Below, one piece after another: positions 40,832 through 64,000 of a stretch of DNA of 64,000 nt. A model generated the notes under the pieces. It saw only the letters and a program-made list of their open reading frames with translations, made no database searches and was not told the DNA's origin. Made by a program: the position numbers and the translations under genes. Every line of letters begins with the position of its first letter. Positions within the stretch are counted from its first letter, which is position 1. Source of the stretch: an uncultured Verrucomicrobiae bacterium (GTDB lineage: Bacteria; Verrucomicrobiota; Verrucomicrobiia; Limisphaerales; Palsa-1400); assembly GCA_963764165.1 (NCBI GenBank), contig CAVXRD010000003.1:672001-736000 (forward strand), given 5' to 3'.

Positions 40832-40845
40832 AAAGGAGACTGATT

Positions 40846-45252: not shown

Positions 45253-47073
45253 TCAGGATTCGGCTTCGGACAGCCGTTCGTCCAACGCCCAGGCGGCGCT
45301 GATTAAGGCGATATGCGTCAGCGCTTGCGGAAAATTTCCAAGATGTTCCCCGCAGGGGCCGAGTTGCTCGGCATAAAGTCCCAGATGGTTGGCGTAGCCC
45401 AGTGCTTTTTCGAAAATGAACCGCGCTTTTTTCAAGTCGTTGGCGCGCGCGAGGCACTCCACATACCAAAACGAGCACATCGAAAATGTGCCTTCCTGCC
45501 CGGACATTCCATCGGGCGCCGCCTTCGACGGGAGATATCGGTAAACGAGCGAATCCTCGATCAAACGCTCCTGAATCGCCTCCAGGGTGGTTTTCCAGCG
45601 CGGATCGGTGGGGCTGATGGCCTTCACCAGCGGCATGAGCAGCGCCGCCGCGTCGACGGTATCCGCGCCGCGGTATTGGACAAACGACTTCAATTTCGGA
45701 TTCCAGAATTGTTGGTAGATGCTTTGGTAGATTTCATCGCGAATGCGGTGCCACTTCACCAAAGGCGCGGGGAACGAACGGTCGCGCGCGATATTCATGG
45801 CTCGGTCCACCGCCACCCAGCAAAGCACGCGCGAATACAAAAACGGGCGCGCGCCGCCGCGGACTTCCCATATGCCTTCGTCCGGCTTTCGCCAATTCTT
45901 GCAGACCCACTCGACCAGCCCGGTCAGGTTCATCCAGAAATCATACGATATGGGCTCGACGTGCCTGTCGTATATAAAGACGGCATCCATCAGCTCCCCG
46001 TAAATGTCCAATTGAAGCTGGTCGAGCGCGCCGTTGCCGATGCGCACCGGCGACGATTTCTTGTAGCCTTCAAAATGCTTGAGCGTCGTTTCCGGCAGGT
46101 CGCGGCTGCCATCGATGCGGTACATGGCCTGCATTGGGTGGCCGGGTTTGGTTTCCCGGCAGCGCATTTCCACCCATTGCATGAAGGCCCGGGCCTCATC
46201 CTGATAACCGAGCCGCATCAGCGCGTATAACGTGAACGATGCGTCGCGGATCCAAGTGTAGCGGTAATCCCAATTGCGCGCGCCGCCAAGGCGCTCCGGC
46301 AAGCCAAACGTTGGCGCCGCGACGATGGAGCCGTGCGGCTTGGATGTCAGCAGTTTGAGCGTGAGCGCCGAACGGTTTACCATCTCGCGCCAGCGGCCGC
46401 GATAATTGGAGCGCGCCACCCACGCCAGCCAAAAGTTCATCGTCTCCTTGAAGGAATCCGTCACATAATCCGCGCTGGCCGAGGGCGATTCCCTCCCCTC
46501 CTCCGCCATCTCCAGAATGAAGGCCTTGGACTCGCCCGGCTTCAAGGCAAATTCGCAAGAGATTTCGCCATTTTCCTCTCGCATGGTTCCGTCGCAACGG
46601 AGGCGAAGCGTGGGAAGATTTTTCCCCGCCGGGACGAAAAGCGCTTCGCCTTTCTTTTTTTCGACCTGGTGTTGTGCGCGGCCGTAATCGAATTTCGGCG
46701 CGCACACCATGCGGAAACGAACTTCGCCGCGGATCACCTTGACGCGCCGGATCAGATTATGGCTGTGGCCGAGATGCTCGATTGCCATGAAATCGGAGAT
46801 TTCCGCCACGCCTCCATCGCCGAGAAAACGCGTCAACAATATGTTCGTGTCGGGGAAATAGCGCTGGCGCGTGCGGAATTCCCCGCCAATGGGGCAAATA
46901 TGAAAACTTCCGCCGCGCTTGTGATCAACCAGCGCGGCGAAAATGGTGGGAGAATCGAAGCGCGGGAAGCACATGAAGTCAATGGCCCCCTGCATGCTGA
47001 CCAGCGCGGCGGTATTGAGATCCCCAATAACGCCGTAATTTTCTATCGGCTGGTAGTCCCCTGCTGAATTCAT
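45253..47073 (-). CDS. Glycoside hydrolase family 15 (trehalase/glucoamylase-like)
   Basis: IENYGVIGD, RNWDYRYTWIRDA, QLDIYGE, DEGIWEVR, GNFPQALTH. Confidence 0.93.
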   Translation of the reverse strand: MNSAGDYQPIENYGVIGDLNTAALVSMQGAIDFMCFPRFDSPTIFAALVDHKRGGSFHICPIGGEFRTRQRYFPDTNILLTRFLGDGGVAEISDFMAIEHLGHSHNLIRRVKVIRGEVRFRMVCAPKFDYGRAQHQVEKKKGEALFVPAGKNLPTLRLRCDGTMREENGEISCEFALKPGESKAFILEMAEEGRESPSASADYVTDSFKETMNFWLAWVARSNYRGRWREMVNRSALTLKLLTSKPHGSIVAAPTFGLPERLGGARNWDYRYTWIRDASFTLYALMRLGYQDEARAFMQWVEMRCRETKPGHPMQAMYRIDGSRDLPETTLKHFEGYKKSSPVRIGNGALDQLQLDIYGELMDAVFIYDRHVEPISYDFWMNLTGLVEWVCKNWRKPDEGIWEVRGGARPFLYSRVLCWVAVDRAMNIARDRSFPAPLVKWHRIRDEIYQSIYQQFWNPKLKSFVQYRGADTVDAAALLMPLVKAISPTDPRWKTTLEAIQERLIEDSLVYRYLPSKAAPDGMSGQEGTFSMCSFWYVECLARANDLKKARFIFEKALGYANHLGLYAEQLGPCGEHLGNFPQALTHIALISAAWALDERLSEAES

Positions 47074-47076
47074 TTG

Positions 47077-48741
47077 TTATCCAACAACCTCCTGCTGGCG
47101 ATCATCTTCAAAGAGCGGGATCTCGTCGGTTTCGGCGATCTTGCCATAGTCCAATTTGACCAGCCGATCCGCCATGTAGAAATAACGGTCGTCATGCGTG
47201 ATCACCAGCACCGTCTTGCCGCGAGCCTTCAGGTCGGGCAGCAATTTCGTGTAGAACACTTTCTTGAAAATCGGATCCTGGTCGGAGGCCCACTCGTCAA
47301 ACAGGTAGAACGGGCGGTCCTCCAGATAAGCCGTGAGCAACGCCAGGCGTTTGCGCTGGCCGGTGGAGACCGACGTCGTGGAAAGCTTGCCGTTAGTCAC
47401 GCGAATCTTGTGCTTGAGGTGCAGTTGCTCGAGATAACCGCCTGCCCGCGCGTCAATGTCTTTGTCATCGATGCCAAGCAGGTTATCGAAGACAAAGAAG
47501 TCCGAAAACACCGCCGAGAACAACTGGCGGTAAGAGTCACGCGTTTTGTTGGTGACGGCTTTTCCGTCCAGACGAATTTCGCCCCCTTCCGGCAGGTAAA
47601 GGCCGGTGATGATTTTGGCGAGGGTGGATTTTCCGCTGCCGTTGCCACCCACCAGGAACACCAATTCGCCGCGGTTGAAGGCCAGGTCAATCGGCCCCAG
47701 GGTAAAGCTCGTGTCCTCCATTTCGCGATGATAGGTGTGGCTCACATTGCACAGCTCGATGCGCTCAAAGGATTGCTCATTCGCCGGCTTGTCGACTGGG
47801 CATTCTTCAGTGGAGCGCTCAGAAAGGGAAACGCCCAATTCCTGCACCTTTTGCAGTGCCACTTTGGCGCGGCCAAACAGCGAGATGCTGCTCAAGACCG
47901 CCGCCAGCGGCCCCATCATAAACAGCGTCGTCACGACATATCCCGTCATCGTCGCAGTGCTGATGGTCGACATATGAGGCGCCATAAACAAAATCAGCCC
48001 TATCAAGGCGAAGTAAAGCAGGTGGCTCCAGCTCTGCGCCGCCGCGAAGCGAACTTCCGCCGCGACATTGTGCTTTTGAAACGACGTGGTCACATTCTCG
48101 ACGTTGCGGGTCAGAAAGGCGCCCCGGCGGTCGCGGTGCAGTTTCAATTCCTTGATGCCATCGGTGAGCGCGCGGAAGTAGCCGAACAAACGGTCTTCAT
48201 CTTCCCGCGCTGCGCGGCAGTAGCGCAACGCGCTGGATACCACGACGAGATACCCCCCGGCGCCCAGCGCGATGACAACCATGATCGATGCCAGCATTTG
48301 CCACGACAGCCATCCAAGGTATATCGCGCCGCCCGCCAGGATGGCGATGTTTACCGATAAGATCGGCACCGCGAGCAAGGCCTGGGTGATGTTTAGAACG
48401 TCATCGGTCAATGCCGCCAGAATGCGGTGCGTGCCGAGATTCTCCAAATCGCGCAGCGGCACGGCAAGAATTTTTTTCACCAGGTCACGCCGCAATTCGG
48501 CGACGGCGCGCTGCGAGAATCCAGCCAGCACGGCTTGCGACAGGAACAGCGAGACAACTTTGCCAATGCCCAATCCGACGAAAGCCCAAATCAGCCCCCT
48601 GCTCGCAGAACCCGCATTGTTCATGGCCTTCGTAATCAGGGCCATCAGGCCGGCGTTGCAAACGCCGCTCAAGGCCGCCATCCCGATGGTAGCGAAGACA
48701 AGCCCGCGACAAGTGCGGAGGATGAATTTTAATAGCGTCAT
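47077..48741 (-). CDS. Cyclic peptide export ABC transporter (SyrD/PvdE/YojI family)
   Basis: DGIKELKL, GGNGSGKST, STGQRKRLAL, FDEWASDQDP, ITHDDRYF; start overlaps the NRPS stop. Confidence 0.93.
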   Translation of the reverse strand: MTLLKFILRTCRGLVFATIGMAALSGVCNAGLMALITKAMNNAGSASRGLIWAFVGLGIGKVVSLFLSQAVLAGFSQRAVAELRRDLVKKILAVPLRDLENLGTHRILAALTDDVLNITQALLAVPILSVNIAILAGGAIYLGWLSWQMLASIMVVIALGAGGYLVVVSSALRYCRAAREDEDRLFGYFRALTDGIKELKLHRDRRGAFLTRNVENVTTSFQKHNVAAEVRFAAAQSWSHLLYFALIGLILFMAPHMSTISTATMTGYVVTTLFMMGPLAAVLSSISLFGRAKVALQKVQELGVSLSERSTEECPVDKPANEQSFERIELCNVSHTYHREMEDTSFTLGPIDLAFNRGELVFLVGGNGSGKSTLAKIITGLYLPEGGEIRLDGKAVTNKTRDSYRQLFSAVFSDFFVFDNLLGIDDKDIDARAGGYLEQLHLKHKIRVTNGKLSTTSVSTGQRKRLALLTAYLEDRPFYLFDEWASDQDPIFKKVFYTKLLPDLKARGKTVLVITHDDRYFYMADRLVKLDYGKIAETDEIPLFEDDRQQEVVG

Positions 48742-51700
48742 GTTGATAATAATGCCGGCTGGTTTTCTGCGGTGGTGGTTTTTTGAGTTTCCTTAAGGGC
48801 TGCCGTCAAATCCGCGGCCAGGGTCTTGACGTTGGGCTCCATAAAGATGTTTTCGTGCGAACCAGGAATGAGTCTGACACTGACTTCTCCCGTGGTGAGC
48901 TTGCCCCAGCTCAAATCATGCGCAAACGAGCAGAGCATCGGATGCCCGCGCGTGCGGAACAGCGCAAGATTCCCCGTGCAGGGCTGCTGCACGTGGCGGT
49001 GAAGGGCTTGCAAATGCTTTCGCCAGAGCTTGAGTTCGTTTTCCGGGAAAAGCGCCGGGTCGATGATTTCCTCCAGGTCGACCGGGGCCTCGCCCTGCTT
49101 TCTCTTGATCCGCTTGGCTATTTTGCGGCCAATCGAGCGAATCTTTCTCCCGACAAAACGCCAGCGGTCGCGGGCCGGAACCTGCTTGAAATCTTCCAGC
49201 CAGTAATAGGTGTTGCGGGCGAACAGGAAGAAGAATTGCGGCTTCCACCATTCCACGGATTCGTAACCGACATTGACCGGCGCGGCATCCAGCAGGGCCA
49301 TCAGCGCAACCTGCGCGCCTTCGGCTTGGAGCTGGCGACCCATCTCGTAGGCCACGTTGCCGCCGAAACAATAGCCTCCGATGTAATACGGCCCCTCCGG
49401 CTGCTGGGCGCGAATGGCCTGCACGTAATACGCGGCCATCTCTTCGATGGTGTCGAATTCCTCCAGGCCAATTTGCCCGCGGGAACGCAGCGCAAAGATC
49501 GGCTGGTCGCGATCCATATGCACCAGCAAATTGGCGTAGCCCCATAGCACATCGCCGCCCGCGCCGTGGACCAGGAACAGCGGCGGCTTGCTGCCATTGG
49601 GCTGAATGGGAATGACCACTGAGTGCGATACGGCGGATTTTGCCTTGGAAAGAACCGCCGCCAATTGGCCGATCGTCGGCGCCTGAAACAAAGTGACAAG
49701 CGGCAGCTTCTGGCCGGTCATCTTTTCGACTTGGGCGAACAGTCGAACCGCGAGAAGCGAATGCCCGCCGAGTTCAAAGAAATCGTCCGCGGTCCCGACG
49801 CGCTCGACGCGCAGGAGCTTCTGCCACAACTCGCAAAGCTCGCGCTCAATTTGCGACTGCGGCGCAACGTAACGGCCGCCCGCCCCCGGACGCAACGCCA
49901 GGCGCGCTTCGATTTTTTGGTGAATTTTCGCGGCGTCGTTCAGTTCGGCGGCAATGGCGCGGCACTTGGTGAATTTCTTCACCGCGCCCGGCGCCGGAGT
50001 GGATTTGCCTTCGGTTGACGCCGGAGCAACGGGCGATTCGCTGCGCGGGGTAAATTCGACTTTGGCCGCAAATTCCGGCGGGAATTGATATTGGCCGCCT
50101 TGCTGGAATTGCGTCCCGATGCTCTCCAGAAAATCCAGCGCGGGCTTGTTCCGCGGCAGCCGCTCGAACGGGACATTCACCCATTTGGAATGGTGCTGCG
50201 CCGCCGCTTTGCCGAGGGCCTGAAGCATGCGATGCTCCACGCCGCGGCCCAGCGCGCGGCAACTCAGGAGGAATGAATCCACCACCAGCGCCTGGCCGCT
50301 AAAACTAAAAATCATCGCTCCGACCAGGCCGTAATCGCCGAAGCGATCCTTCACGGAAACGGTCCAGATTTCGGAGACTCCCGCCAACTGCTTCACTTCG
50401 CTCTCGGTGCGCCGCTTGCCGTTGACGTTGAATTGATTGGTGCGCTGCGTCAATTGTGACACGCGCGCAAGCTGCGCGGGCGCGGCCGGCGCAATGTCCA
50501 CCTGCAATTCCAGCTTGGCTATGAAATCCGCGAAGTTCGTCGATTGCGACTGCAGCTGCTCGCGCAATTGATTTTGCTGATACATCGCGGCGCGGCCCTT
50601 GTCCTCCGCCGTCGTCTTAAGCTGATCGAACGCCCAGCAGTGATCGAGAAATTGCGGGATGGCTGAAACATCTTCGGGCAACTGCAGAGCGAGAACTTCC
50701 GGGCTGTTGCCTTCCACTTCCGCGCATTCGACGGGGTTGTCGTCGATCAGCACAAAGCTATCGAGCCCAAGTTTCAATTCCTGCGCAATGGATTTGATGT
50801 TTTCTGATTTCGATTTCCAATTCACCCGCCACGCGGAAATGTGCTCGCGCAAAATCGGCATGGCGGGCCCTTTTGCGAACACCGCTTCCACGTCCGCTTC
50901 ATCGTTCTTGCTGCAAATCACGAGCAATTTGCCCGCCTCGCGCTGGCGCAGGACAAAATTTTGCAGGGCCACGCGCCCGGCTTCCAAACGAATCCCATTC
51001 GGTCCATCTTCGCCGCAAACGCCCGACCAGAGCGTATTGTCGCAATCCAGCGCGATGACTTTGCACGGAGGACGGCGCAGGGCATGAAATTTCCGGGCCA
51101 GCATGGTGGCCAGCGAGGTAAAGAACAGGGGCGTGTAGGGAATCCGGCCGAGCTCGTCGCCCGCGGGATCATCATAATCCGCCACCGGATACTTCTGTGA
51201 AAGCTCGGCGCTTGTCACGACATGGACGCCGTCAATCCCATGGAGCGTCACGGTGAGCGCCGTTTCTAGATCCTTCAGGGCTTCAGCCTTGGCTGGCTCC
51301 GCCAGCGCCATGCGCGAAGGCGGGCAGAAACAGACCAGCATCGACGCGCCGCCGCGGGCGGCTGCGCTTTGCACCGCGCTGACAAACTCGTCGGCGTGAT
51401 GTTTGATGGCTTGCCCAAATGTCAGCGCGCCGGACGCCCCTGTGTTTGACTCCCAATCATTCAAGCGAATCAGCAAAACATTCAGGCCATTGCGATTGGT
51501 GGCGAGATCGCTTTGGGAATCCAGCAATTGCTGGAAGACCTGATCGTAGGGCGCAAACTTGATCCGGGCGGAAATTTCCAATTCATCCAGCCAGAAGCGC
51601 AGCGGCTCCTCAATCGGCTCTGCCGTGAACGTTCCGCAAATCGCGATGGTTTCGGGCTGCGCGCGCTTGGGGGCTTTCAGTTCCACATCGGCAATCACCG

Positions 51701-54700
51701 TCCGCGGCGCTTCCGCCAGCATTTGCAAAACGGATTGGAAGGAGGCCAGCAATTGCTCAATCGATTTTTGATGGAACAAGCCCGCCTTGTATTCGCACGT
51801 CAGAGCAAGGCCGGCCGGCATTTCGTTGGCTTCAAAGCGGAGGTCGAGCAGCGCGGCTTCGGTGTTGACAACAATGGGAGCGCTCGTGATTCCCTCGCCG
51901 AATTGCGGCAGGTCCGGCGTGTTTTGGTAGAGCAGCGCCACATTGTAAAGCGGATTGCAGCCCGGGCGGCGCTCCACTTTGGCTGATTCCACTATTTTCT
52001 CGAACGGACAATCCTGATGCGATTGGCTTTCGATAATCTCCGCCTTCACCGCCCGCAGCGTTTCGAAGCCCGCCGCCGCGCCGGAAATTTTGAAGCGCAA
52101 TGGCAGGAAGTTCATGAAACAGCCAATGAGACCCTCAATCTCGCGGCGATTGCGGCCAGCCACCACGGTGCCGAGAACCATGTCCGTTTGGCCCGTCCAT
52201 TTGTGCAGGGTAATCGCCAGGGCGGCCATCAGCACCATGAACGGTGTTCCGCCTTCGCGCTGGCTCAATTTCACAATTTCCGCGCTCAACGCCTGCGGCA
52301 GCTCCACCGCAATCCGGCCGACCTTGGCTTCGGTCTGTTCCGCATTATCCGAGTCGGTGGGAAGTTCGACTGCGACAGGCGCGCCCGCCAATTTCTGCCG
52401 CCAATACGCCAGCTCCCTTTGCTCGGTGGCGCCTTGCAGCCAGCGGCGCTGCCATTGGGCGAAGTCCGCGTATTGCACGGGCAGCGGCGCAAAGTTGGGC
52501 GCGCTATTTCCCGAAACGATGGCGCGGTAGCTCGTTTCCAGCTCCCGGAAAAATACGTCCAGCGACCAGCCATCCGACACCGCGTGGTGCATCACAATGA
52601 GCAAAGCGTGATCGGTCGCGCTCATGCGGGCCAGCCTGGCGCGGATCAACGGGCCCCGCTCAAGATCAAATGAGCGATGCGCTTCGGCTTGCAAAACTCC
52701 GGCCAATTTCGATTCGTCGGCACCCGGAATCTCCGTCACCCACACTTGCACGCTCAATGACGGCGCAATTTTCTCCGACAGAACCCCATCAACAAAATGG
52801 AGGGTCGTGCGAAGCGCTTCGTGGCGGTCAATAATCAAATCGAGGGATTTCTGAAGGGCGGCCACATCGAGCGCGCACTTGATGCGGATCGCGGTCGGAA
52901 CGTTGTAAGCGTCGCTCTTCGGCTCAAGCTGGTTCAAAAACCACAGTTGATCCTGCATGAAGGAAGCGGGCAAGACGCCTTCGCGCGAAATCGGCTCCAG
53001 CGCTGGAACCGGCGCATTCGAATGATTCCAGCGCCCCGAATCCACTCCCGCCGCCAGGGCCTCGACCGTCGGCGCATCAAACAAGCAGGACAGCGGCAAT
53101 TCGATGCCGAGGCTTTCGCGCAGGCGCGAGATGACCTGTATGGCGGTCAGCGAATGGCCGCCTAATTCAAAGAAATGATCCGTCGCACCGATATCCTTGA
53201 TCCCCAATACTTCGCTCCAGGCTGCGGCAACCTTCTTTTCGGCATCCGTGCGCGGCGCGATCAATCCCGTGCGGGCTTCGCTCTGCCCAGCCTGCGGGGC
53301 AGGCAGCGCGCGGCGATCCACCTTGCCATTCGGCGTCAGCGGCAATTTTGGCAGGAACACGAATTGCGCGGGGGTCATGAACTCGGGCAAACGCTCCCGC
53401 GTGCAGCGGCGCAAATCATCGACCGAGGCCGTTTTCCCCGCGTTGAACACGACATAGGCCGCCAGATATTTTTCGCCGGGCCGGTCTTCACGCGCGATGA
53501 CCACCACTTCCGCCACCGCCGGATTGGCCTTGAGAGCGATTTCGATTTCGCCCAATTCAATGCGGAAACCGCGAATTTTGACTTGATGGTCGGAGCGGCC
53601 GAGATACGTCAGATTCCCGTCTTCGCGCCAGCGGGCGACGTCACCAGTTTTGTAGATGCGCGAACCCTGCTTGTAAGGGTGCGGCAGAAAACGCTCGGCG
53701 GTGAGGTCGGGGCGGTTCAAATAACCGCGCGCCACTTTATCACCGCCGATATAAAGATCGCCCGTCATGCCCACCGGCAGGGGCTGCATTTGTTTGTCAA
53801 GAATATAGACTTGCTCGTTGGCCAGCGGACGGCCGATGGTCGCCGGTTCGCCTGTTTTGCGCAGGGCGCCCGTCGAATAGGTGGTCGTTTCGGTCGGGCC
53901 GTAAAGATCGTAAACCTTCTTCGCTGACGTCTTGGAATAAATTTGCTCCACCAGCGCGGTGGCCAGCGGCTCGCCCGCAAGATTGACAACTTTGACTGAA
54001 CTGGGCACGCCGTTGATGCGGAGCAATTCGCGCATGGCCGATGGCACGGTGTTGACCAGAGTGACTTCCGAAGCGGCAGGCAGGCCCGGCAGAGCAAGCG
54101 CGTTGTCGGCCAGGATAATTTTTCCGCCCCAGCAGAGCGGAACGAACATTTCGTAAACGGAAAGATCAAAACACATCGAGGTCGACGCGAGCATTCCCGC
54201 GTACTCCTCGGGCAGAAACGCATCCTTCGCCCAGCAGACCATGGCCACGGCGTTGCGATTTTCCAGGGCGACGCCTTTCGGCTGTCCGGTCGAGCCGGAG
54301 GTGTAGAGCACGTAAGCCAAATCGTTTGGCCCGGCTTGATTCAAAGGAGCTGTCTTGTCGGAGATTGGCTGGATGTTCTCGACGAGCAGCACCTGGGTTT
54401 TCGAGGCGGGAATCAATTCGCGGAAACGCTCGCGTGTCAGCAACACGCGCAATCCAGCATCCTGCGCGATGGCCGCCAGGCGCGCCTTCGGATAAGTGGG
54501 ATCCAGAGGGACATAAGCTCCGCCCGCTTGAAGTGTTCCGAGAATCCCGGCCACCATATCCTCGGAGCGCTCGAGGCAGATGCCCACCAAAGATTGGTTG
54601 CCCACCCCTAAAGCTTGCAAACTCTTCGCAATGGTTGCGGCGCGCTCGTAAAGCTCGCGATACGTGAATCGCTTTGTCCCCACCACGAGCGCCTCCGCAG

Positions 54701-57700
54701 TGGGCGTCCGCGCGGCCTGTTCATTGAACAATTGGGCGAGCGTCTTTTCGCGCGGGTATTCCAGTTGCGTGCGATTCCATTCATTCAGAATCGTCTCCGA
54801 TTCCGCCGGGGTCAAAATAGACAGCTTGGACAGGGGCTGTTCCGGCGCCGCGACCAGAGACTGCAGAGCGGTTTCCACATGCCCCAGCATCCGTTGCGCC
54901 GTGGCGCGATTGAACAAATCCGTTGCGTATTCCAATCGGAAAACCGGCCCCAGTTCGTTGTCAAGAAGGCAGAAACGCAGGTCGTATCCCTCCACGATGG
55001 ATGGCGCCTCGGTCGCGAAAAAGACCTGCGCAATCGGGTGATATGAAGAATCCGCCGATGGGCAAATTTGCGCGATGACGTCCTTGAACGGGATTTGCGA
55101 ATGCTGGACGGCGGCAGTTTTGGCGGTGCGAACGCGGTCGAGCAAATCACGGCCCGTCATTTCCGCGGCCATGCGAGTGCGGACCACGGCAATGTTGGCT
55201 TTATGGTCACTGCCCGTTTGCAAGCCAACCGGCAGATCGTCCTGCCCGGAATACCGGTTTAAAACGACATCGAGGGCGGCCAGCGCCAAGGCGGCCCGGT
55301 CGCCGGTTTCCATTTTTGACGCCAGCGAGCGCGGCAAAGGCCGGGTTTCTGTGGCCACCGCTTTGGATAATACCGCTGGACGAGTGCGGTCGGTGGGCAA
55401 TTCCAAAAGTGCGGGTGCGCCCGCCAGCTCACGCTTCCAGAAATCCATATCGAGTTCCCTGCTTTGCTCCAGAACTTTCTTCAGTTCGGCTGCTGTTTCA
55501 TCCACCCAGGGCTCCTCCAAAACCTTCTCATGGGCGCCCTGGACGATGGTGATATTGACTCCGCGGCGGGCGAAATCGCCCCAGCCGTAATCCTGCTCGA
55601 AAGAGCACCATAACGGGTGGCCCGGGCTGCGGAACAGGTGAACACGGCCTTCGTATGGTTTTGGATGAAACTTTCGCAAGGCCAGAATATGGCTTTGCCA
55701 CAATGCGCGCTGGTCAGCCGGAATGGTGGCAAGGTCAACCAGATTTTCCGCGTCATTGGCGGCCGAGCCATTGCCGCCGCCGCCAAGCAAACGGGAAAGC
55801 TTTTGTTTGACACGGCGCGTTTTCCAGAGAATGAAATCGTGGCGCTGGGCCGGGGTCCATTGCCGGCAGTAATCGGCCCAGTAAACCAGATTTTTGGCGA
55901 ACCGCAGCCCCCACGCAGGGGTATAACTGAATTGGGTGTAGCTCGAGTTCGGCGGAGCGCAATTGAGCAGCGCCAGCAAGGCGACTTTTTCGCCCTGCGC
56001 CTCGATTTGCCGCGCCATTTCAAAGGCCACGTTTCCACCGAAACAATATCCGCCGAGATAGTAGGGGCCGTGCGGCTGGATGCGGCGCATATCCTTGACA
56101 TATTGCGCGGCCATTTCCTCCATGGTGTCGAATTCCTGGTGGCCGTTCAGCCCGCGGGAACTCAATCCGTAGACAGGCTGGTCCGCGCCAAGCCGGCGGG
56201 CAAGATTCACGTAGCCCCAGAACATTCCGCCACCCGCTCCGTGGACGAGAAATAACGGAGGCTGTGTTCCCTTGGGCTGCAACTCGACAACAGACGTTCC
56301 GGCGGTGGCGCTTTCGTCGCGAATCTCGTCACGCACCACCACTGCCAGCTTCTCCACGGTCGCCGCGGTAAAGATCGCCGCGAGCGGCAGTTTTTTCCCG
56401 AAGGCCTTCTCAATGCGCGCGGAAACTTTGACGGCCAGCAGCGAATGGCCGCCCAGATCGAAAAAATTATCCTCGATGCCAACGGGTTCGACGCCCAGCA
56501 CGCTTTCCCAAATGCGGCACAGCTCCAATTCGACAGCGTCCCTCGGTGATGCGTATTTGCGCGTCAATGTGGGACGGGCGTGGTCCGGCTCCGGCAGGGC
56601 GCGGCGATCCACTTTCCCGTTGTGTGTCAGCGGAAGGGATTCGATTTGCACGAACGCCGAAGGAATCATGTATTCCGGAAGATGTTCGCCAAGAATGGCG
56701 CGCAACTGATTCGGCTTGGGCGCGAGTTTTCCATCCGGGACATAGTAGGCCACCAGGCGGGTCTGGCCGGCTCCGGAGCCGCAGACTTTGACCGCGCATT
56801 CGCGCACGCCAGGGCAGCGTCCCATCACGGCTTCGATTTCGCCCAACTCGATGCGATAACCGCGCAGCTTTACCTGGTTATCGATGCGGCCCAAATACTC
56901 GACGTTCCCATCCGGGAGCCAGCGGGCGAGGTCCCCGGTGCGATAGAGGCAGACACAGGGGCTGTCTGCGCTAAATTGATGAAGAACAAATTTCTCAGCG
57001 GTGAGCTCCGGACGATTCCAGTAGCCCTTGGCCAACCCGTCGCCACCGGTATACAACTCGCCCGGAACGCCAATTGGGACCGGATTGCGATTCGCGTCAA
57101 GTATATAAACCTGGGTATTCGAGAGCGGCTTGCCAATCGGCACGTTCGTCGCATTTTCTGGAATGTCGCGCAGGAGAGCGCAACAGGTGAATGTCGTGTT
57201 CTCGGTCGGGCCGTAACCATTGACGAGGCGGTGCGGCGGGCGGTCTTTGAGCACCGCGCGCACCCATCGCGCATCCAGCGCTTCGCCGCCGGCCATCACG
57301 GTCCGCATGGTGGCAAACGCGCCGGGAACCTCCGAGGCCACCTGGCTGAACAATGCCGAGGTCAGGAACATCGCGGTGATGCCCTGCTCGCGCAATTCCG
57401 CCGCAAAATCCTTCGGCGAGAGCGCAATGTCCGTTGCGATGCCGCGCAATTGCCCGCCGTTGAGCAGCGAGCCCCAAATTTCAAACGTCGCCGCGTCGAA
57501 AGACATGTTCGACACTTGGGCGATGCGGTCGGTCGCATCCAGCTGGATATAGTTCGTCTTGAAAACCAAACGATTCACGCCGAGATGCGGCACGGCCACG
57601 CCCTTGGGCTGGCCTGTCGAGCCGGAGGTGTAAATGATATAGGCGGTGTCCGTCGGCTTGGTGCGATTTGGAAGATTCTCGGCGCTCTCGCGCTGGATTT

Positions 57701-59555
57701 CGTCCGCATCGGCATCGAGGCAAATCGCGCGCAGGCCGCGATGCGGCAAGTGCCGCAGCAAGCTTTGCTGTGTCAATAATACACCGGTTCGCGTGTCGCT
57801 GAGCATGAAGGCCAGGCGTTCCTTCGGATAACGCGTGTCCATCGGAACATACGCCCCGCCCGCTTTCAAAATCGCCAGCAGCCCGATGATCATGCTGGGC
57901 GAGCGCTCCATGCAAATGGCGATGGGCGCGGCTGGGTCAAATTTCTGCCGCGCGATGACGCGGGCAAGCCGATTGGCGCTTTCGTTCAATTCGCCATACG
58001 TCATCGTCTCCCGGCCGAACACCAGCGCCACCGCGGCCGGCGTCGCCCGGGCCTGCGCCTCGAACAATTCGTGAATGCATTGCTGGCGCGGATAATCGGT
58101 CGCGTTGTCGTTCCATTCCACCAGCACGCGGCGGCGTTCGGCTTCGCCCAAAATCGGCAAATCCGAAAGGCGGCGCACCGGTTCGATCACCACGCTGCGA
58201 AGCAGATTCTCGTAATGCTCCAGCAGCCGTTCCATGGTCCCCTGCTCGAAAAGGTCGCAATCGTATTCCACCAAAGCCACCATTGAGCTGCCAAAATCCT
58301 GCACCACAAACGTCAAATCGAATTTCGCCGTCCCCGTATCGGTCTCGACGTGCTCCACCTGCAATCCCGGCAGCGTCATCGCGCCGTTGTTGACAGTCTT
58401 GGCCTGCAGCGCGAACATCAGCCGCGTGAAGGCCAGATGCGCCAGCGAGCGTTCCGGGCGAAGCGATTCCACGACGCGTTCAAAGGGCAAATCCTGATGC
58501 GCGTAAGCGCCGAGGGCCGCAGCCCGCACGCGCTGGAGCAATTCATCAAAGGTCGGGTTGCCCGCGAGGTTGGCGCGGAGCAAAAGCGTATTGACAAAGA
58601 ATCCGATGAGCCCCTCGGTTTCAAGGCTGTTGCGCCCCGACACCGGCGTTCCAACCACGACGTCCTCAAGGCTTGTGTAACGATGCACCAGCGCCTGGAA
58701 CGCGGCCATCAACACCATGAAAAGCGAGGACTGCCGTTCCGCGGACAATTGTTTCAAACGCGGGCCGAGGTCCGGGCTTAACCGGCGCGTCACCGTCCGT
58801 CCCCGAAAAGCCGGAGTGCGCTCGCGCGGCTTGTCAGTCATCAATTCCGTGATCGGCGGAGAGCCGGCCAGTTGCGTTTTCCAATATTGGAGCTGGTCCT
58901 GAACGGACTCGCCGCTGAGCTTCTGCTTTTGCCAGTCGGCGTAGTCGGAGTATTGAATCGGCAGCTCGGGCAATTGCGCTTTGCGGTTTTCGATTTGCGC
59001 TTTGTAAAATTCTTCCAGCTCGCGAAACAGCACATTCAGCGACCACTCGTCGGAGGCGATGTGATGCAGATTCAGCACCAGCATGTGATCGTTGGAGGCA
59101 AGGCGCACCAATGACGCCCGCAGCAGCGACTCCGTGCTGGCCAGATTGAACGGGCGGCGGACTTCTTCGCGGATCCATTTGTCCGCCTCCGCCGCATTGG
59201 GCATGTCCACGACGCGCAGCGCGAAATCGAATTGGTTCGAAATCACCTGCACCGGCGTTTCCGCCGAGCAAACGAAACGGGTGCGCAGCGTCTCGTGGCG
59301 CTTGATGATGTTCCTCAAGGACTGATCGAGAGCGATTACGTCCAGCGAGCCTGTCAGGCGCAGGACGGACGGAACATTGTAAAGGGGGCTGTTCGGATGC
59401 AGTTGATCCAAAAACCACAACCGCTGCTGGGCGAAGGAAAGCGGGCTTTGGTTTTCGCGGCGCGAGGCCTGCCGCAAGCGCTCGGCCAATCTGGCTCTTT
59501 TCTCTTCCGCGGTCTGTGCGGGCGCTGGTTCTACTGGGGAGGTAGAGGTAGTCAT
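48738..59555 (-). CDS. Non-ribosomal peptide synthetase: C-A-T-TE-(half C)-A-T-C-FkbH-T-TE
   Basis: HHIASDEWS and HHAVSDGWS; two A domains (YTSGSTG, YGPTE, TGD, PLT.NGKVDR); three GGHSL carrier domains; two GYCFG TEs; FkbH motifs LDCDNTLW, DDNPVE, LSCRALGR. Confidence 0.93.
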   Translation of the reverse strand: MTTSTSPVEPAPAQTAEEKRARLAERLRQASRRENQSPLSFAQQRLWFLDQLHPNSPLYNVPSVLRLTGSLDVIALDQSLRNIIKRHETLRTRFVCSAETPVQVISNQFDFALRVVDMPNAAEADKWIREEVRRPFNLASTESLLRASLVRLASNDHMLVLNLHHIASDEWSLNVLFRELEEFYKAQIENRKAQLPELPIQYSDYADWQKQKLSGESVQDQLQYWKTQLAGSPPITELMTDKPRERTPAFRGRTVTRRLSPDLGPRLKQLSAERQSSLFMVLMAAFQALVHRYTSLEDVVVGTPVSGRNSLETEGLIGFFVNTLLLRANLAGNPTFDELLQRVRAAALGAYAHQDLPFERVVESLRPERSLAHLAFTRLMFALQAKTVNNGAMTLPGLQVEHVETDTGTAKFDLTFVVQDFGSSMVALVEYDCDLFEQGTMERLLEHYENLLRSVVIEPVRRLSDLPILGEAERRRVLVEWNDNATDYPRQQCIHELFEAQARATPAAVALVFGRETMTYGELNESANRLARVIARQKFDPAAPIAICMERSPSMIIGLLAILKAGGAYVPMDTRYPKERLAFMLSDTRTGVLLTQQSLLRHLPHRGLRAICLDADADEIQRESAENLPNRTKPTDTAYIIYTSGSTGQPKGVAVPHLGVNRLVFKTNYIQLDATDRIAQVSNMSFDAATFEIWGSLLNGGQLRGIATDIALSPKDFAAELREQGITAMFLTSALFSQVASEVPGAFATMRTVMAGGEALDARWVRAVLKDRPPHRLVNGYGPTENTTFTCCALLRDIPENATNVPIGKPLSNTQVYILDANRNPVPIGVPGELYTGGDGLAKGYWNRPELTAEKFVLHQFSADSPCVCLYRTGDLARWLPDGNVEYLGRIDNQVKLRGYRIELGEIEAVMGRCPGVRECAVKVCGSGAGQTRLVAYYVPDGKLAPKPNQLRAILGEHLPEYMIPSAFVQIESLPLTHNGKVDRRALPEPDHARPTLTRKYASPRDAVELELCRIWESVLGVEPVGIEDNFFDLGGHSLLAVKVSARIEKAFGKKLPLAAIFTAATVEKLAVVVRDEIRDESATAGTSVVELQPKGTQPPLFLVHGAGGGMFWGYVNLARRLGADQPVYGLSSRGLNGHQEFDTMEEMAAQYVKDMRRIQPHGPYYLGGYCFGGNVAFEMARQIEAQGEKVALLALLNCAPPNSSYTQFSYTPAWGLRFAKNLVYWADYCRQWTPAQRHDFILWKTRRVKQKLSRLLGGGGNGSAANDAENLVDLATIPADQRALWQSHILALRKFHPKPYEGRVHLFRSPGHPLWCSFEQDYGWGDFARRGVNITIVQGAHEKVLEEPWVDETAAELKKVLEQSRELDMDFWKRELAGAPALLELPTDRTRPAVLSKAVATETRPLPRSLASKMETGDRAALALAALDVVLNRYSGQDDLPVGLQTGSDHKANIAVVRTRMAAEMTGRDLLDRVRTAKTAAVQHSQIPFKDVIAQICPSADSSYHPIAQVFFATEAPSIVEGYDLRFCLLDNELGPVFRLEYATDLFNRATAQRMLGHVETALQSLVAAPEQPLSKLSILTPAESETILNEWNRTQLEYPREKTLAQLFNEQAARTPTAEALVVGTKRFTYRELYERAATIAKSLQALGVGNQSLVGICLERSEDMVAGILGTLQAGGAYVPLDPTYPKARLAAIAQDAGLRVLLTRERFRELIPASKTQVLLVENIQPISDKTAPLNQAGPNDLAYVLYTSGSTGQPKGVALENRNAVAMVCWAKDAFLPEEYAGMLASTSMCFDLSVYEMFVPLCWGGKIILADNALALPGLPAASEVTLVNTVPSAMRELLRINGVPSSVKVVNLAGEPLATALVEQIYSKTSAKKVYDLYGPTETTTYSTGALRKTGEPATIGRPLANEQVYILDKQMQPLPVGMTGDLYIGGDKVARGYLNRPDLTAERFLPHPYKQGSRIYKTGDVARWREDGNLTYLGRSDHQVKIRGFRIELGEIEIALKANPAVAEVVVIAREDRPGEKYLAAYVVFNAGKTASVDDLRRCTRERLPEFMTPAQFVFLPKLPLTPNGKVDRRALPAPQAGQSEARTGLIAPRTDAEKKVAAAWSEVLGIKDIGATDHFFELGGHSLTAIQVISRLRESLGIELPLSCLFDAPTVEALAAGVDSGRWNHSNAPVPALEPISREGVLPASFMQDQLWFLNQLEPKSDAYNVPTAIRIKCALDVAALQKSLDLIIDRHEALRTTLHFVDGVLSEKIAPSLSVQVWVTEIPGADESKLAGVLQAEAHRSFDLERGPLIRARLARMSATDHALLIVMHHAVSDGWSLDVFFRELETSYRAIVSGNSAPNFAPLPVQYADFAQWQRRWLQGATEQRELAYWRQKLAGAPVAVELPTDSDNAEQTEAKVGRIAVELPQALSAEIVKLSQREGGTPFMVLMAALAITLHKWTGQTDMVLGTVVAGRNRREIEGLIGCFMNFLPLRFKISGAAAGFETLRAVKAEIIESQSHQDCPFEKIVESAKVERRPGCNPLYNVALLYQNTPDLPQFGEGITSAPIVVNTEAALLDLRFEANEMPAGLALTCEYKAGLFHQKSIEQLLASFQSVLQMLAEAPRTVIADVELKAPKRAQPETIAICGTFTAEPIEEPLRFWLDELEISARIKFAPYDQVFQQLLDSQSDLATNRNGLNVLLIRLNDWESNTGASGALTFGQAIKHHADEFVSAVQSAAARGGASMLVCFCPPSRMALAEPAKAEALKDLETALTVTLHGIDGVHVVTSAELSQKYPVADYDDPAGDELGRIPYTPLFFTSLATMLARKFHALRRPPCKVIALDCDNTLWSGVCGEDGPNGIRLEAGRVALQNFVLRQREAGKLLVICSKNDEADVEAVFAKGPAMPILREHISAWRVNWKSKSENIKSIAQELKLGLDSFVLIDDNPVECAEVEGNSPEVLALQLPEDVSAIPQFLDHCWAFDQLKTTAEDKGRAAMYQQNQLREQLQSQSTNFADFIAKLELQVDIAPAAPAQLARVSQLTQRTNQFNVNGKRRTESEVKQLAGVSEIWTVSVKDRFGDYGLVGAMIFSFSGQALVVDSFLLSCRALGRGVEHRMLQALGKAAAQHHSKWVNVPFERLPRNKPALDFLESIGTQFQQGGQYQFPPEFAAKVEFTPRSESPVAPASTEGKSTPAPGAVKKFTKCRAIAAELNDAAKIHQKIEARLALRPGAGGRYVAPQSQIERELCELWQKLLRVERVGTADDFFELGGHSLLAVRLFAQVEKMTGQKLPLVTLFQAPTIGQLAAVLSKAKSAVSHSVVIPIQPNGSKPPLFLVHGAGGDVLWGYANLLVHMDRDQPIFALRSRGQIGLEEFDTIEEMAAYYVQAIRAQQPEGPYYIGGYCFGGNVAYEMGRQLQAEGAQVALMALLDAAPVNVGYESVEWWKPQFFFLFARNTYYWLEDFKQVPARDRWRFVGRKIRSIGRKIAKRIKRKQGEAPVDLEEIIDPALFPENELKLWRKHLQALHRHVQQPCTGNLALFRTRGHPMLCSFAHDLSWGKLTTGEVSVRLIPGSHENIFMEPNVKTLAADLTAALKETQKTTTAENQPALLST

Positions 59556-62500
59556 TTGAGTTCCTTCTCATCCAATTCCAACAGCAACTCTTCAACTTCA
59601 CTGTCGGAAAGCTCGTCGATGCGATCCAAAAGACGCTGGGCTCGCGACGTTTCATTTCGGCGGAGTTCAATGCCAGGCTGCGAGGCAGTTTGCCGTTCCG
59701 CGGACACGACTTCGCGGGCCATTCCCGCGACGGTGGGCGATTCAAAAATGACGCGCACCGGCAATTCGATCTGCAATGCCTTGGCGATGCGGGACACAAT
59801 CTGCGTCGCCAGCAGGGAATGTCCGCCGAGGTGGAAAAAATTGTCGTTGATGCCGATCCGGTCCCGTCCGAGGATTTCACGCCAGATGTCCGCGAGCAAA
59901 ATCTCGGTCGGATTCCGCGGCGCTTCGCAGGCCTCGGCTTCCGCTTTTGCGAGTTCCTCGGGAGCGGGCAGCGCGCGGCGATCCACTTTTCCGTTGGGCG
60001 TCAGCGGCAGCTTGTCCATCGGCACGATATGCGACGGGACCATGTAGGATGGCAGCTTGATCGAAAGAAATTCGCGCAACTGAAGGCTGGCAGGCGACGT
60101 GTCCGCGCGCAGCACGACATAAGCGACCAACTGTTTCGTGCCCGAATGATCTTCCCGCGCCACCACCAGCGCCTCACGCACCGATTCATGGGTCATCAAG
60201 GCGGCCTCGATCTCACCCGGCTCAACCCGGAAGCCGCGAATCTTCACTTGTTCATCTTTGCGCCCGATGAATTCGACATTTCCATCTGGGAGCCAGCGCG
60301 CCAAGTCGCCGGTTCTATAGAGATGCTCCGGGCCGAACGGATTGTGGACAAATTTTGAATCCGTAAGTTCCGGACGATTCACATAACCGCGCGCGACGCC
60401 ATCTCCGCCGATGTAAATTTCCCCGATCGCGCCCTGGGCCACGGGCCTCATGGCAGCGTCCAAAATATAAATTTGCGTGTTCGCGATTGGCCGCCCAATC
60501 GGCACTGAGGCGCGGCCAGCCCAATTTTTTGGCACGCGATAGCAGCAGGTAAATGTCGTGTTTTCGGTCGGGCCGTAACCATTGATAAATTGCGTGTTCT
60601 TCAATTCCCGCACGGCCTTGAGCACATGCGGAACGGATAGCGCCTCGCCTCCGGCCAGCAGGAAACGCAGGCCCTGCAAGCTGGCCAATTGGTTGTCAAT
60701 CATTTGATTGAACCAGCCGGAGGTCAGCCAGAGGGTCGTGATTTTATGCCGCTGCACGAAATGGCCCAATTCCTCCAAGGACGGCATTTGCGGCGGATGC
60801 AAAACCAGTTTCGCGCCGTTGGCCAGGGCGCCCCAAATCTCAAAGGTCGACGCGTCGAACGAAAGAGTCGCCAATTGCAGAAAAACATCGTTTGGGCTGA
60901 ATTCGACAAAGTCCGTATTCCGCACCAAGCGCCCTATTCCGCGATGTGTCACGGCAACCCCCTTCGGCCGGCCAGTCGAGCCGGAGGTATACATGATGTA
61001 GGCCATATCCGTCGCTTTGGGCGCGCGGACTGGGCTGTTGCGGAGACGGCCGCCACCGACCGGCCAATTTGGATTGTCGAGGCAAAGAATCTGTTCGCCA
61101 GGGGCTGGAATGGCGCCACGGTAGCGTTCGCGGGTTACGACAAGGCTGGCCTTCGAGTCTTCCAGCATCATCGCATTGCGGGAAGCTGGATTGGCGGGAT
61201 CGAGCGGAAGATAAACCGCGCCCGTTTTCAAAATCGCGATGAGCGCCACAATCATGTCAAGCGAACGCTCGACGCAAAGGCCGATCACCGTCTCCACCCC
61301 TGCCCCGGCTTCGGTGAGTTTCGCCGCGACCAGGTTGGCGCGATGATTCAACTCGCCATAGGCGATTTCGCCATCTTCGCAGACCAGCGCAATGGCCGCC
61401 GGATTTTTGGCAACCTGCTTCTCGAAAAGCTCATGCGCGCAGGCGTCACGCTCGTATTCGTTCGCCGCACCCAACCCAAGCTTCATCGATTTCTCGCGCT
61501 CCGTGTCGGTTTCCAATTCAAATTCCGAAATGCGCAGCGCGGAATTCGCGAGAATATTTTCAACGAGAACGCGGTATTGCTTCGCCCAGCGCTCAATCGA
61601 GGGCGCGTCATACAAATCCGTGCTGTATTCGATGCGAATATCGAGATGGCGCCTCCCTTCCGTGACCAGCAGCGTGAAATCGAATTTCGCGGCGCCGCTC
61701 TCGAGTTCGACCCGACTGGCGTTCAAGCCAGGGATCGTCCAGCCGTCCGAAAAATCCCGCTGCAAGCCAAAAGCCACCTGGAAGAGCGAATTGGCGGCCA
61801 AATTCCGTTCACCGCCGAGGGCGCGGACGAGATAATGCAGCGGCGGTTGCTGCCCCGCGCCAGCGCTCATCGACGTCTCGCGAACGCGCTTGAGCAGCTC
61901 CGCAAAGGTGGGATTGCCAGCCAGACCGATCCGCAGGGCGCGAGTATTGACAAAGAAACCGATCAGGTTTTCGGTTTCCAATTCGTCGCGTCCCGAGAAG
62001 GGGGAACCAATCACCAAATCTTCCTGCAAAGTGGCGCGTTGAAGCAAAATGGCAAAGGCTGAAAGCAACACCTGGTAGACTGTCGAACCTTCTTTGCGCG
62101 CGAAATCCTTCAGTTTCGCCGCGAGCGGCTCGGGCCAGTTTGCGAACAGCGCCGTCCCGCGATGGCTCGTCATTGCCGGGCGCGGACGGTCTCCCGGAAA
62201 ACTGGTGAGCGGCGGTGCGCCGGCGAGCTGCTTCTTCCAAAATTCCACGCCTTCCCGCATCTGATCGCTCTGGGACATTTCGCGCTGCCACAGCGCGAAA
62301 TTGCCGTATTGAATCGGGAGTTCGGGAAGATCTGACTCACGGCCAGCGTCAAAGGTTTTATAAAGCGCCGCGAGTTCACGAAGGAAAACGCCCACCGACC
62401 ATGCATCGGAAATGATGTGATGCATGTTGATGGCGAGAAGATTCTTCCGGTCACTGACACGGAAAAGGCTCACGCGCATCAGCGGCTCTTGGGTCAAGTC

Positions 62501-62848
62501 GAAGGATTTTCTGGCATCCGCCCCGGCGAGACGGACCGCCTCGGCCTCACCGCTGGCCTGTAGCCGAAGATCGGTAACGGACAGCGGAAAAGGCTTGGGC
62601 GGAAAAACGATCTGGCAGGGCTTGCCATCCTTGGAACCGAGCGCGGTGCGCAAACTTTCGTGGCGGCGCACGATTTCGTTCACGGCATATTGCAGCGCGG
62701 ATAGGTTCAGGGCGCCATCGAGCCACCACGCCTCGGCGATATTGTAGGTTGCCGTGTTGGGCGTGGCTTGCTCAAAAAACCAGAGTCCCTCTTGTGGCCA
62801 TGACAGGGGGAGCACGCCTGCCATATTTTGAACCGATTGGTCCTGCAC
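59552..62848 (-). CDS. Non-ribosomal peptide synthetase, single module C-A-T (Val-type code)
   Basis: HHIISDAWS; YTSGSTGRPKG; pocket residues read by eye as DAFWLGGTFK; FFHLGGHSL. Confidence 0.93.
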   Translation of the reverse strand: MQDQSVQNMAGVLPLSWPQEGLWFFEQATPNTATYNIAEAWWLDGALNLSALQYAVNEIVRRHESLRTALGSKDGKPCQIVFPPKPFPLSVTDLRLQASGEAEAVRLAGADARKSFDLTQEPLMRVSLFRVSDRKNLLAINMHHIISDAWSVGVFLRELAALYKTFDAGRESDLPELPIQYGNFALWQREMSQSDQMREGVEFWKKQLAGAPPLTSFPGDRPRPAMTSHRGTALFANWPEPLAAKLKDFARKEGSTVYQVLLSAFAILLQRATLQEDLVIGSPFSGRDELETENLIGFFVNTRALRIGLAGNPTFAELLKRVRETSMSAGAGQQPPLHYLVRALGGERNLAANSLFQVAFGLQRDFSDGWTIPGLNASRVELESGAAKFDFTLLVTEGRRHLDIRIEYSTDLYDAPSIERWAKQYRVLVENILANSALRISEFELETDTEREKSMKLGLGAANEYERDACAHELFEKQVAKNPAAIALVCEDGEIAYGELNHRANLVAAKLTEAGAGVETVIGLCVERSLDMIVALIAILKTGAVYLPLDPANPASRNAMMLEDSKASLVVTRERYRGAIPAPGEQILCLDNPNWPVGGGRLRNSPVRAPKATDMAYIMYTSGSTGRPKGVAVTHRGIGRLVRNTDFVEFSPNDVFLQLATLSFDASTFEIWGALANGAKLVLHPPQMPSLEELGHFVQRHKITTLWLTSGWFNQMIDNQLASLQGLRFLLAGGEALSVPHVLKAVRELKNTQFINGYGPTENTTFTCCYRVPKNWAGRASVPIGRPIANTQIYILDAAMRPVAQGAIGEIYIGGDGVARGYVNRPELTDSKFVHNPFGPEHLYRTGDLARWLPDGNVEFIGRKDEQVKIRGFRVEPGEIEAALMTHESVREALVVAREDHSGTKQLVAYVVLRADTSPASLQLREFLSIKLPSYMVPSHIVPMDKLPLTPNGKVDRRALPAPEELAKAEAEACEAPRNPTEILLADIWREILGRDRIGINDNFFHLGGHSLLATQIVSRIAKALQIELPVRVIFESPTVAGMAREVVSAERQTASQPGIELRRNETSRAQRLLDRIDELSDSEVEELLLELDEKELK

Positions 62849-62922: not shown

Positions 62923-63999
62923 TTAAACACCCGCTTTGACCACGCGGGCGCGGCGATTTGTGATTGTGGGACGCGGCGTCGAAGCCGCTTTCGCACCCTG
63001 CATCAATCCCGCCAGCGATGCCACGGTGGGATTCTCGAAAATCGCACGCAACGGCAGATCCAAGCCGAACCGGCGATTAATCCGGGCGAACGCCCGCGTG
63101 GCCGAAAGGGAGTCCGCGCCCAATTCAAAGAAATCGTCCTCGATGCTGATTTGGCGGAGAGTAAGAACTTCCTCCCAAACTTCCACCAGCGCCTTTTCCT
63201 GTTCGTTGCGCGGGCCGACGTAATTTCGCGGTGAAGCGCTCGTTTCCTCGGGTGTGGGAAGTCGGTTCACATCGATTTTGCCATTCGGTGTGAGCGGAAA
63301 TTCCTTCAACGCGACGAAGTGCGCGGGAACCATGTAGCCAGGCAGTTTCGCGCGGAGGAATTCACGCAATTCCGCCGATTCCGGCGCGCCGTTGCGTGTC
63401 GTAAGGTAAGCCACTAACCGCTTCTCACCGGCGCCGATTTCGCGGGCGGTGACGACGGCATTGGTGATCTCCTCGTGCTGGCGGAGGATCGTTTCGATTT
63501 CGCCCAGTTCGATGCGGAACCCGCGAATTTTCACCTGTTGATCGGCGCGGCCAAGGCACTCGACAGTGCCATCCGGCAGATAACGCGCGAGGTCGCCCGT
63601 TTTGTAAATGCGGCTCTTGCCATCGTTGCGGAACGGATCAGCGATGAATTTATCAGCCGTCAATTCAGGCCGGCCAAGATAACCGCGCGCAAGGCCGTCG
63701 CCACCGATGTGCAATTCGCCCGCCACGCCGACAGGTACGGGTTGGAGTTGATGATCGAGAATGTACAACTGCGTGTTGGCAAGCGGACGGCCGATCAAAA
63801 TCGGGCTCTTCGGCTCTACTTTCCAAGCTGTCGACCAGATCGTCGTTTCCGTCGGGCCGTAGAAATTCCATAAGCCCGCGACTTTTCCGGCGAGGCCGTC
63901 CGCCAGGGTGCGGGTGAGGGCCTCGCCGCCGCAGAGGACGCGAAGATCGCGTTTGCCAGCCCAACCGGATTCAATCAACAAGCGCCATGTTGTGGGTGT
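62923..63999 (-). CDS. Non-ribosomal peptide synthetase, C-terminal A-T part (5'-partial; Gly-type features)
   Basis: LCGGEAL, NFYGPTETTIWS, YKTGDL, FFELGADSL; frame open to the window end. Confidence 0.9.
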   Translation of the reverse strand, partial: TPTTWRLLIESGWAGKRDLRVLCGGEALTRTLADGLAGKVAGLWNFYGPTETTIWSTAWKVEPKSPILIGRPLANTQLYILDHQLQPVPVGVAGELHIGGDGLARGYLGRPELTADKFIADPFRNDGKSRIYKTGDLARYLPDGTVECLGRADQQVKIRGFRIELGEIETILRQHEEITNAVVTAREIGAGEKRLVAYLTTRNGAPESAELREFLRAKLPGYMVPAHFVALKEFPLTPNGKIDVNRLPTPEETSASPRNYVGPRNEQEKALVEVWEEVLTLRQISIEDDFFELGADSLSATRAFARINRRFGLDLPLRAIFENPTVASLAGLMQGAKAASTPRPTITNRRARVVKAGV

Positions 64000-64000
64000 T

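Follow-up and report, generated by a model that had tools for sequence, protein, structure and literature searches.

Two assembly lines, each with its own thioesterase (TE), are most probably combined in a single nonribosomal peptide synthetase (NRPS) that is encoded in the 64,000-nucleotide stretch of DNA analyzed here (the window); we consider this reading well supported and put its probability at about 0.85. The protein, NRPS-3, is the product of one open reading frame, in which searches with Pfam, NCBIfam and small locus-derived profiles place a complete TE between a first set of condensation (C), adenylation (A) and carrier (T) domains and a second set that closes with another TE (Table 1). 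There is no active C domain between the first two carriers, since the partial C domain that follows the internal TE (half-C) is missing the active-site loop and could not catalyze. As the preliminary description of this DNA had proposed, T1 and T2 would thus have no usual means of condensation, and A2 would start a second line whose product is Ala-O-glycerate.

The elements of this architecture were all recovered by the profile searches. TE1 is a PF00975 domain downstream of a T domain, with a Gx[S/C]xG-type nucleophile and a C-terminal His; its motifs are located at aa 1100 (PLFLVHG), aa 1169 (GYCFG, shared with TE2) and aa 1340 (GAHE). Only eight residues separate the end of TE1 from DFWK at aa 1371 (position 55445), where the half-C begins. 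Residues 1371-1582 align with the C-terminal lobe of C domains alone (28% to aa 222-480 of C1), and their alignment with solved C domains begins at about residue 194-279. Motif, alignment and structure-model checks of these residues found no N-lobe with HHxxxDG, and elsewhere in the protein HHxxxD occurs in C1 and C3 only. When aa 1092-1600 were modeled with AlphaFold from a 48-row alignment (pLDDT 85), the result was an alpha/beta hydrolase with one C lobe, the CAT-like C-terminal lobe being present and folded; Foldseek ranks the Txo1 C domain first among matches to this model, over 247 columns. Downstream, the FkbH domain scores 304 bits against TIGR01686 (cut-off 146.65) and sits between an intact C domain and a T domain, as in the glyceryl modules of the vioprolide type; C3 would form an ester to the glycerate, whose only nucleophiles are hydroxyls. 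The preliminary description, which had read a complete TE running straight into a C-terminal lobe without its N-lobe, and then A2-T2-C3-FkbH-T3-TE2, is thereby upheld.

Table 1. The NRPS cluster and its domains (positions are those of the window)
Feature	Position	Strand	Remarks
NRPS-1, 3' end	62923..64000	-	1692 aa, runs to G000:C3:740001; A(DVWNIAMVHK)-T-C-A-T
NRPS-2	59552..62848	-	C(HHIISDA)-A(DAFWLGGTFK)-T
NRPS-3	48738..59555	-	3605 aa; C1-A1-T1-TE1-halfC-A2-T2-C3-FkbH-T3-TE2
C1	58146..59456	-	Motif HHIASDE, aa 164
A1	56571..58088	-	Code DAFFMGGTFK
T1	56322..56534	-	GGHS; TE-adjacent type; 54% identical to T3
TE1, internal thioesterase	55467..56267	-	aa 1097-1363; Cys1171, Asn1198, His1342
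Half-C, C-terminal lobe only	54810..55445	-	aa 1371-1582; probable relic of a His-less C domain
A2, probable start of line 2	53301..54743	-	Code DLYNNALTYK
T2	53037..53249	-	GGHS; ordinary C-facing type
C3, predicted ester-forming	51672..52985	-	HHAVSDG, aa 2323; predicted acceptor glyceryl-T3; vioprolide precedent (sections of PMC8949500)
FkbH, predicted glyceryl-loading domain, with N-terminal extension	50061..51638	-	TIGR01686 aa 2831-3151; DCDNTLW motif
T3	49644..49856	-	GGHS; TE-adjacent type
TE2, terminal thioesterase	48792..49592	-	Cys/Asp/His; 43% identical to TE1
ABC transporter, cyclic-peptide export	47077..48741	-	TIGR01194; overlaps NRPS-3 stop

The junction between TE1 and the half-C could in principle be an assembly chimera, as the preliminary description had cautioned, or might conceal an internal translation start at Met1370, where an ATG is preceded by a purine-rich stretch seven bases upstream. 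We give either explanation next to no credence. The whole 509-aa junction is matched without stops, at 56-67% identity, in five of 60 related genomes, each of which has the same three-gene NRPS cluster (spread over two contigs in G017), and the junction recurs in 54 other proteins, while the GC level stays at 0.58-0.63 across positions 52000-59500; a chimera is excluded on these grounds. Met1370 is missing from all five aligned orthologues, and the internal start was rejected as well.

A wider view of this architecture comes from the best 120 long homologues of 1806 hits (2087 candidates were scored), a ranking that favors two-TE proteins, so that the counts given here are not frequencies. All 120 have an internal TE, after which comes either an A domain directly or a C domain that is dead, halved or reduced to a remnant. 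The substrate names attached to A-domain codes here and below (Ala, Lys-like, Pro, Val, Gly and others), for the relatives as well, are those that we take the codes to specify. The search for other cases of the TE-halfC junction was productive, in that 55 of the 120 (NRPS-3 included) have the order TE-halfC-A-T-C-FkbH. In 36 the internal TE is followed by A(Lys-like)-T-c-A(Ala), where c stands for a full-length C domain before A(Ala), and in seven by such a c directly; a C remnant with a Lys module (four proteins), a decayed Lys module (three) and other arrangements (four, including the three-TE proteins P0016 and P0017) are less common in the set. The remaining 11 go from the TE straight to an A domain, with an Ala code in four and a Pro code in seven, and then to C-FkbH; genome G100 encodes the units as three genes, C-A-T-TE, c-A(Ala)-T and C-FkbH-T-TE. 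The outright loss of the C domain in some relatives and the separate genes of another both support the earlier proposal that A2 begins a second unit. Two short homologues that look split, P0125 and P0333, were not counted as real splits, both of them ending in out-of-frame tails.

Of the 401 genomes from the order, 65 have TE relatives, and a class-wide sample gave five in 301 genomes, one of these outside the order; the two-TE fusion is kept across several families of the order, and source names together with one named record place the family in Verrucomicrobiia. A search for related loci among genome contigs returned one locus. Some of the relatives have peculiarities of their own. Tandem A-T-TE units occur in P0016, P0017, P0117 and locus L088 (G144:C8:16309-28230), and in G144 the line stops at an A(Pro)-T pair that no TE follows, immediately ahead of the exporter. 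At L045 (G016:C12:488143) and L058 (G057:C418:601), an isolated C-terminal lobe followed by an A domain opens a gene of its own; these half-C starters are of different origin. A 4500-aa homologue in the single-contig genome G323 (L065-L066; G323:C1:4286817-4300272) is divided into two ORFs by a break inside its Lys-like A domain, which we read as a frameshift or sequencing error. In G323, G205, G160 and G361, likely upstream modules, C-A(Gly)-T and A-T, are found in a locus (L099-L102) apart from the two-TE protein and the WecB/GT4 pair, along with what we take to be a P450-like gene.

The relatives also bear on the origin of the half-C. In the preliminary description the TE was thought to have replaced the catalytic half of a C domain, and this part of it must be abandoned. 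The full-length C domain before A(Ala) lacks the second His of its active-site motif in 49 of 50 cases among the relatives (variants include HEIAAD, HGVACD and HAVACD), and its other core motifs are degenerate too. In a FastTree tree (quick trees were used for A domains and C lobes) the half-Cs interleave with these His-less C domains, and for 49 of the 55 half-Cs the best hit is a His-less C; together these results indicate that the N-lobe was lost several times independently. The half-C thus appears to descend from a C domain that was already His-less, and insertion of a TE into an active C domain was rejected on the same account. Mean pairwise identity is 0.36 among the half-Cs, as against 0.52-0.54 for the other C lobes and 0.64 for TE1 of the same proteins, and is likewise low (0.37, n = 5) for the N-lobe of a full-length c that comes right after TE1. 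In the Lys-type relatives, however, the His-less C that follows a Lys carrier has an identity of 0.50, compared with 0.52 for C1, and TE1 stays at 0.60-0.65 across the arrangements. That conservation falls after loss of the Lys module while TE1 remains steady argues that the TE displaced no catalytic lobe; rather, a C domain left without an upstream donor seems to have decayed, and to have been cut down repeatedly and in some relatives deleted outright, following the loss of the Lys-like module upstream of it. Since the second His is dispensable in some C domains (PMC11546977, in the sections consulted), the full-length c of the Lys-type relatives may still work. The half-C itself would be a folded, non-catalytic relic, likely serving only as a prop for A2.

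TE1 differs from the terminal enzymes in one conspicuous residue. In our alignment, the usual position of the triad Asp is occupied by Asn in all 121 internal TEs, whereas the TEs that follow FkbH have Asp there in 114 of 115 cases and Glu in one; Cys and His are invariant in both groups, as is His1313, at the strand beta7 site, in the internal TEs. The second place at which a triad Asp occurs, after strand beta7 (position II), is that used by ObiF and SulM, according to the portions seen of PMC11298585. TE1 appears to have an Asp at neither position, with Asn1198 at position I and RSPGH after strand beta7. The Asn would nevertheless be a trait of the clade and not a sign of internal position, judging from the alignment: among 120 shorter hits, at least 45 genes have the order C-A-T-TE and terminate in a TE of the Asn type, a stand-alone member (P0241) is found in the cultured Opitutus sp. 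ER46, and in two nearly complete genomes, G158 (97%) and G203 (94%), an Asn-type TE closes the only NRPS line found, with all three NRPS A domains preceding it. No FkbH was found in G158 or G203 by searches that detected it in the positive controls G180 and G100. Because Asn-type TEs also end stand-alone genes, TE1 can be regarded as a true line terminator. In the stretches fetched around clusters with an Asp/Glu-type TE (G030, G053, G012, G169 and G007), neither a line 2 nor an exporter was present.

The product of the first line can be predicted in outline. From their codes, we take A1 to be specific for an aliphatic residue (Val/Ile/Leu-like), A2 for Ala, the A domain of NRPS-2 for Val, and those of NRPS-1 for a Ser/Thr-like residue and Gly. 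The C domain of NRPS-1, at L001:2762-4084(-), takes as its substrate the opening residue of a line that has no starter C; it is closest to the C domains of McyA (406 bits) and AmbE (218 bits), with the next hit at 150, a type that we take to be dehydrating. This suggests an N-terminal dehydro or 2-oxoacyl residue. NRPS-1, NRPS-2 and C1-A1-T1 would accordingly build Ser/Thr-Gly-Val-Val/Ile. The first residue of this peptide is likely dehydrated, in which case the chain would have no free amine at its N terminus with which to cyclize head to tail. Of 26 loci, 20 have a homologue of the ABC exporter behind the NRPS; a GH15 trehalase-like gene comes after it here (45253-47073(-)) and likewise in three others of the 26. 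An epimerase, a second WecG/TagA glycosyltransferase and a B12 radical-SAM gene stand in a row at 38892-42438(+). Only one other small NRPS remnant exists in the genome; a split C domain with an A-T gene (G000:C2:2952732-2957369) and a stand-alone FkbH-like gene (G000:C2:744741-746606) lie outside the cluster.

What TE1 does with this peptide is less certain than the presence of two lines. The reading that we favor, although we rate its chances as slightly short of even, is that TE1 transfers the peptide to the Ala-glyceryl unit and TE2 releases the product. TE1 would take the chain as a cysteine thioester; with Asn replacing Asp, hydrolysis would be slowed and transfer to an amine or hydroxyl favored; in engineered protease ligases, a Cys nucleophile without its Asp favors aminolysis over hydrolysis. 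A2 would load Ala on T2, FkbH would load the glyceryl group on T3, and C3 would join the two as an ester. T3, as a paralogue of T1, would then dock on TE1, where the amine of Ala or the free hydroxyl of glycerate would take the peptide, and TE2 would release the depsipeptide for the ABC exporter. Transfer to T3-bound Ala-glyceryl is favored by the putative dehydro N-terminus, by the Asp-less Cys nucleophile, by the TE-docking type that T3 has in common with T1 (the two carriers share TE-type features missing in T2) and by a fusion that has outlasted repeated deletions. TE-catalyzed acyl transfer has precedents in FrsA (PMC7794379) and in Cong-TE, Ela-TE and OocS TEB (PMC12979598), both sources in excerpt. 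Several observations speak against ligation to line 2. No TE1 column tracks a Lys versus an Ala start of line 2 (38 versus 56 proteins), and co-variation of TE1 with the first residue of that line, when considered, gave nothing beyond what the control domains show; the His-less C of the Lys-type relatives is about as conserved as C1; and the Asn-type TEs that end the lines of G158 and G203, where no FkbH was found, evidently work without an in-line acceptor. The first T domain after TE1 is also the least conserved carrier (0.57-0.60 versus 0.66-0.72), which argues against docking of T2 on TE1.

The same stand-alone Asn-type TEs would suit an acceptor outside the protein, on which both TEs, as acyltransferases, might load the peptide and the Ala-glyceryl unit. 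This shared acceptor would likely be a glycan or lipid-linked sugar made by an operon for GT4, WecB/TagA-STAS, PPTase and GT2 with two unlabelled conserved genes, presumably nucleotidyltransferase-like and phosphatase-like, at L001:15685-19061 and L002:180-7579 (G000:C3:749685-761579), situated some 10 kb past NRPS-1; in G001 and G011 the two are nearly adjacent. A WecB/TagA-STAS orthologue is present in 61 of 65 TE-positive genomes as opposed to 38 of 336 others, counts in which kin are not independent and which include, among the 38, the unpublished genome G334. In G000, G011, G140 and G189 the operon encloses the PPTase gene, and the tandem A-T-TE repeats of P0016 and P0017, like the several separate Asn-TE genes of G057, resemble parallel donors. 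However, 13 of the 14 WecB-only loci examined have no NRPS nearby, so that the operon is a broader polysaccharide system; the peptide-type exporter behind the NRPS fits a small released product; and the G144 line has no TE behind its last carrier. We therefore hold an outside acceptor to be unlikely, if worth keeping in mind.

Quite unlikely, in our estimation, is a plain fusion like that of ObiF, in which TE1 would free the tetrapeptide and TE2 Ala-glycerate or its cyclic form, as unconnected products. In its favor, split forms such as that of G100 exist, and line 2 is optional, since G158 and G180 have the same upstream line and line 2 is found in G180 only; for ObiF, too, one species has a fused form and another a split form (PMC6668435, parts consulted). 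Yet the fusion is kept, despite repeated internal deletions, in 120 of the 120 best long homologues (a set biased to two-TE proteins), and an invariant Asn at the acid position would be unexpected in a plain hydrolase. That TE1 might be an editing or inactive domain, past which the chain skips on to C3, could be argued from the missing triad Asp at both positions known from the excerpts of PMC11298585. We judge this very improbable, as all 121 sequences retain the Cys, the Asn and the His, TE1 is as conserved as the A domains, and members of the same clade are the sole terminal domains of stand-alone lines.

The preferred transfer by TE1 might have a more general counterpart. A bold and doubtful extension is that the Cys/Asn/His TEs are in-line peptide ligases that replace C domains, T-TE-A-T units being chained (as in TE-A-T-TE-A-T of G144, and in P0016 and P0017) while the C domain behind each TE decays. 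If so, they would represent a second way to elongate nonribosomal peptides in a common order of soil Verrucomicrobia, perhaps for decoration of a surface glycan. If TE1 does join carrier-bound units, it would constitute a compact natural peptide ligase and a new type of junction for NRPS engineering. The occurrence of the TE relatives points in any case to a lineage-wide, uncharacterized NRPS family of uncultured Verrucomicrobia, and the natural series from Lys module to dead C, half C, no C and split genes makes the question directly testable.

This family of putatively TE-joined, multi-line NRPSs and its Cys/Asn/His thioesterase are apparently undescribed in print. We found no account of either the cluster or the family in a literature search that covered the main text of open papers, nor is the family described in the portions seen of PMC7750434, PMC8692599, PMC12304814 and PMC13320435. 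The closest solved Cys-TE to TE1 by sequence is that of Acinetobacter AB3403 (PDB 4ZXH; GWCFGG, E 1e-20), a single C-A-T-TE module that has Asp at position I, where TE1 has Asn, and that is itself uncharacterized according to sections of PMC11298585.

Non-terminal TEs have been called highly unusual (bioRxiv 10.1101/2022.11.22.517467), and our comparisons with them draw on parts of the sources cited. ObiF of obafluorin (C-A-PCP-TE-MLP-A; PMC6668435) and SulM (PMC11298585) resemble NRPS-3 in having a non-terminal Cys TE that arose by fusion, with split forms in relatives. They differ in their position-II Asp and in closing a beta-lactone or lactam on a last residue functionalized with a beta-hydroxy or beta-amino group, whereas TE1 has Asn at position I, no position-II Asp, a last residue predicted to be aliphatic and a full TE-bearing second line after it. 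IcuJ of icumazole (same preprint), where a mid-line TE splits the assembly line in two, and OocS TEB of oocydin (PMC12979598), a mid-line TE that acylates in line, are both from polyketide synthases, neither of which has a half-C or an FkbH module; the downstream part of IcuJ is proposed to make an extender unit. The C-FkbH-T modules of vioprolide and cystomanamide (PMC8949500) likewise have FkbH in place of an A domain and an upstream C that esterifies glycerate, but there the glycerate is an early unit to which a peptide is added, while in NRPS-3 it would be the last unit, acylated by Ala and then followed by a Cys-TE. Most similar in plan are the systems of FrsA (FR900359) and Sln9 (salinamide), in which two separately initiated NRPS lines each have a TE, as here, and the TE of one line attaches an acyl-peptide to what the other line has made (PMC7794379, PMC12979598). 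There, the donor module is a protein of its own with the TE at its C terminus, an arrangement that the present family shows only in split forms like that of G100, and what it acylates is a completed macrocycle. NRPS-3 instead unites the two lines in a single chain, with an internal TE of the Cys/Asn/His type; its line 2 would comprise one Ala-glycerate unit, and the acyl transfer by TE1 is a predicted one.
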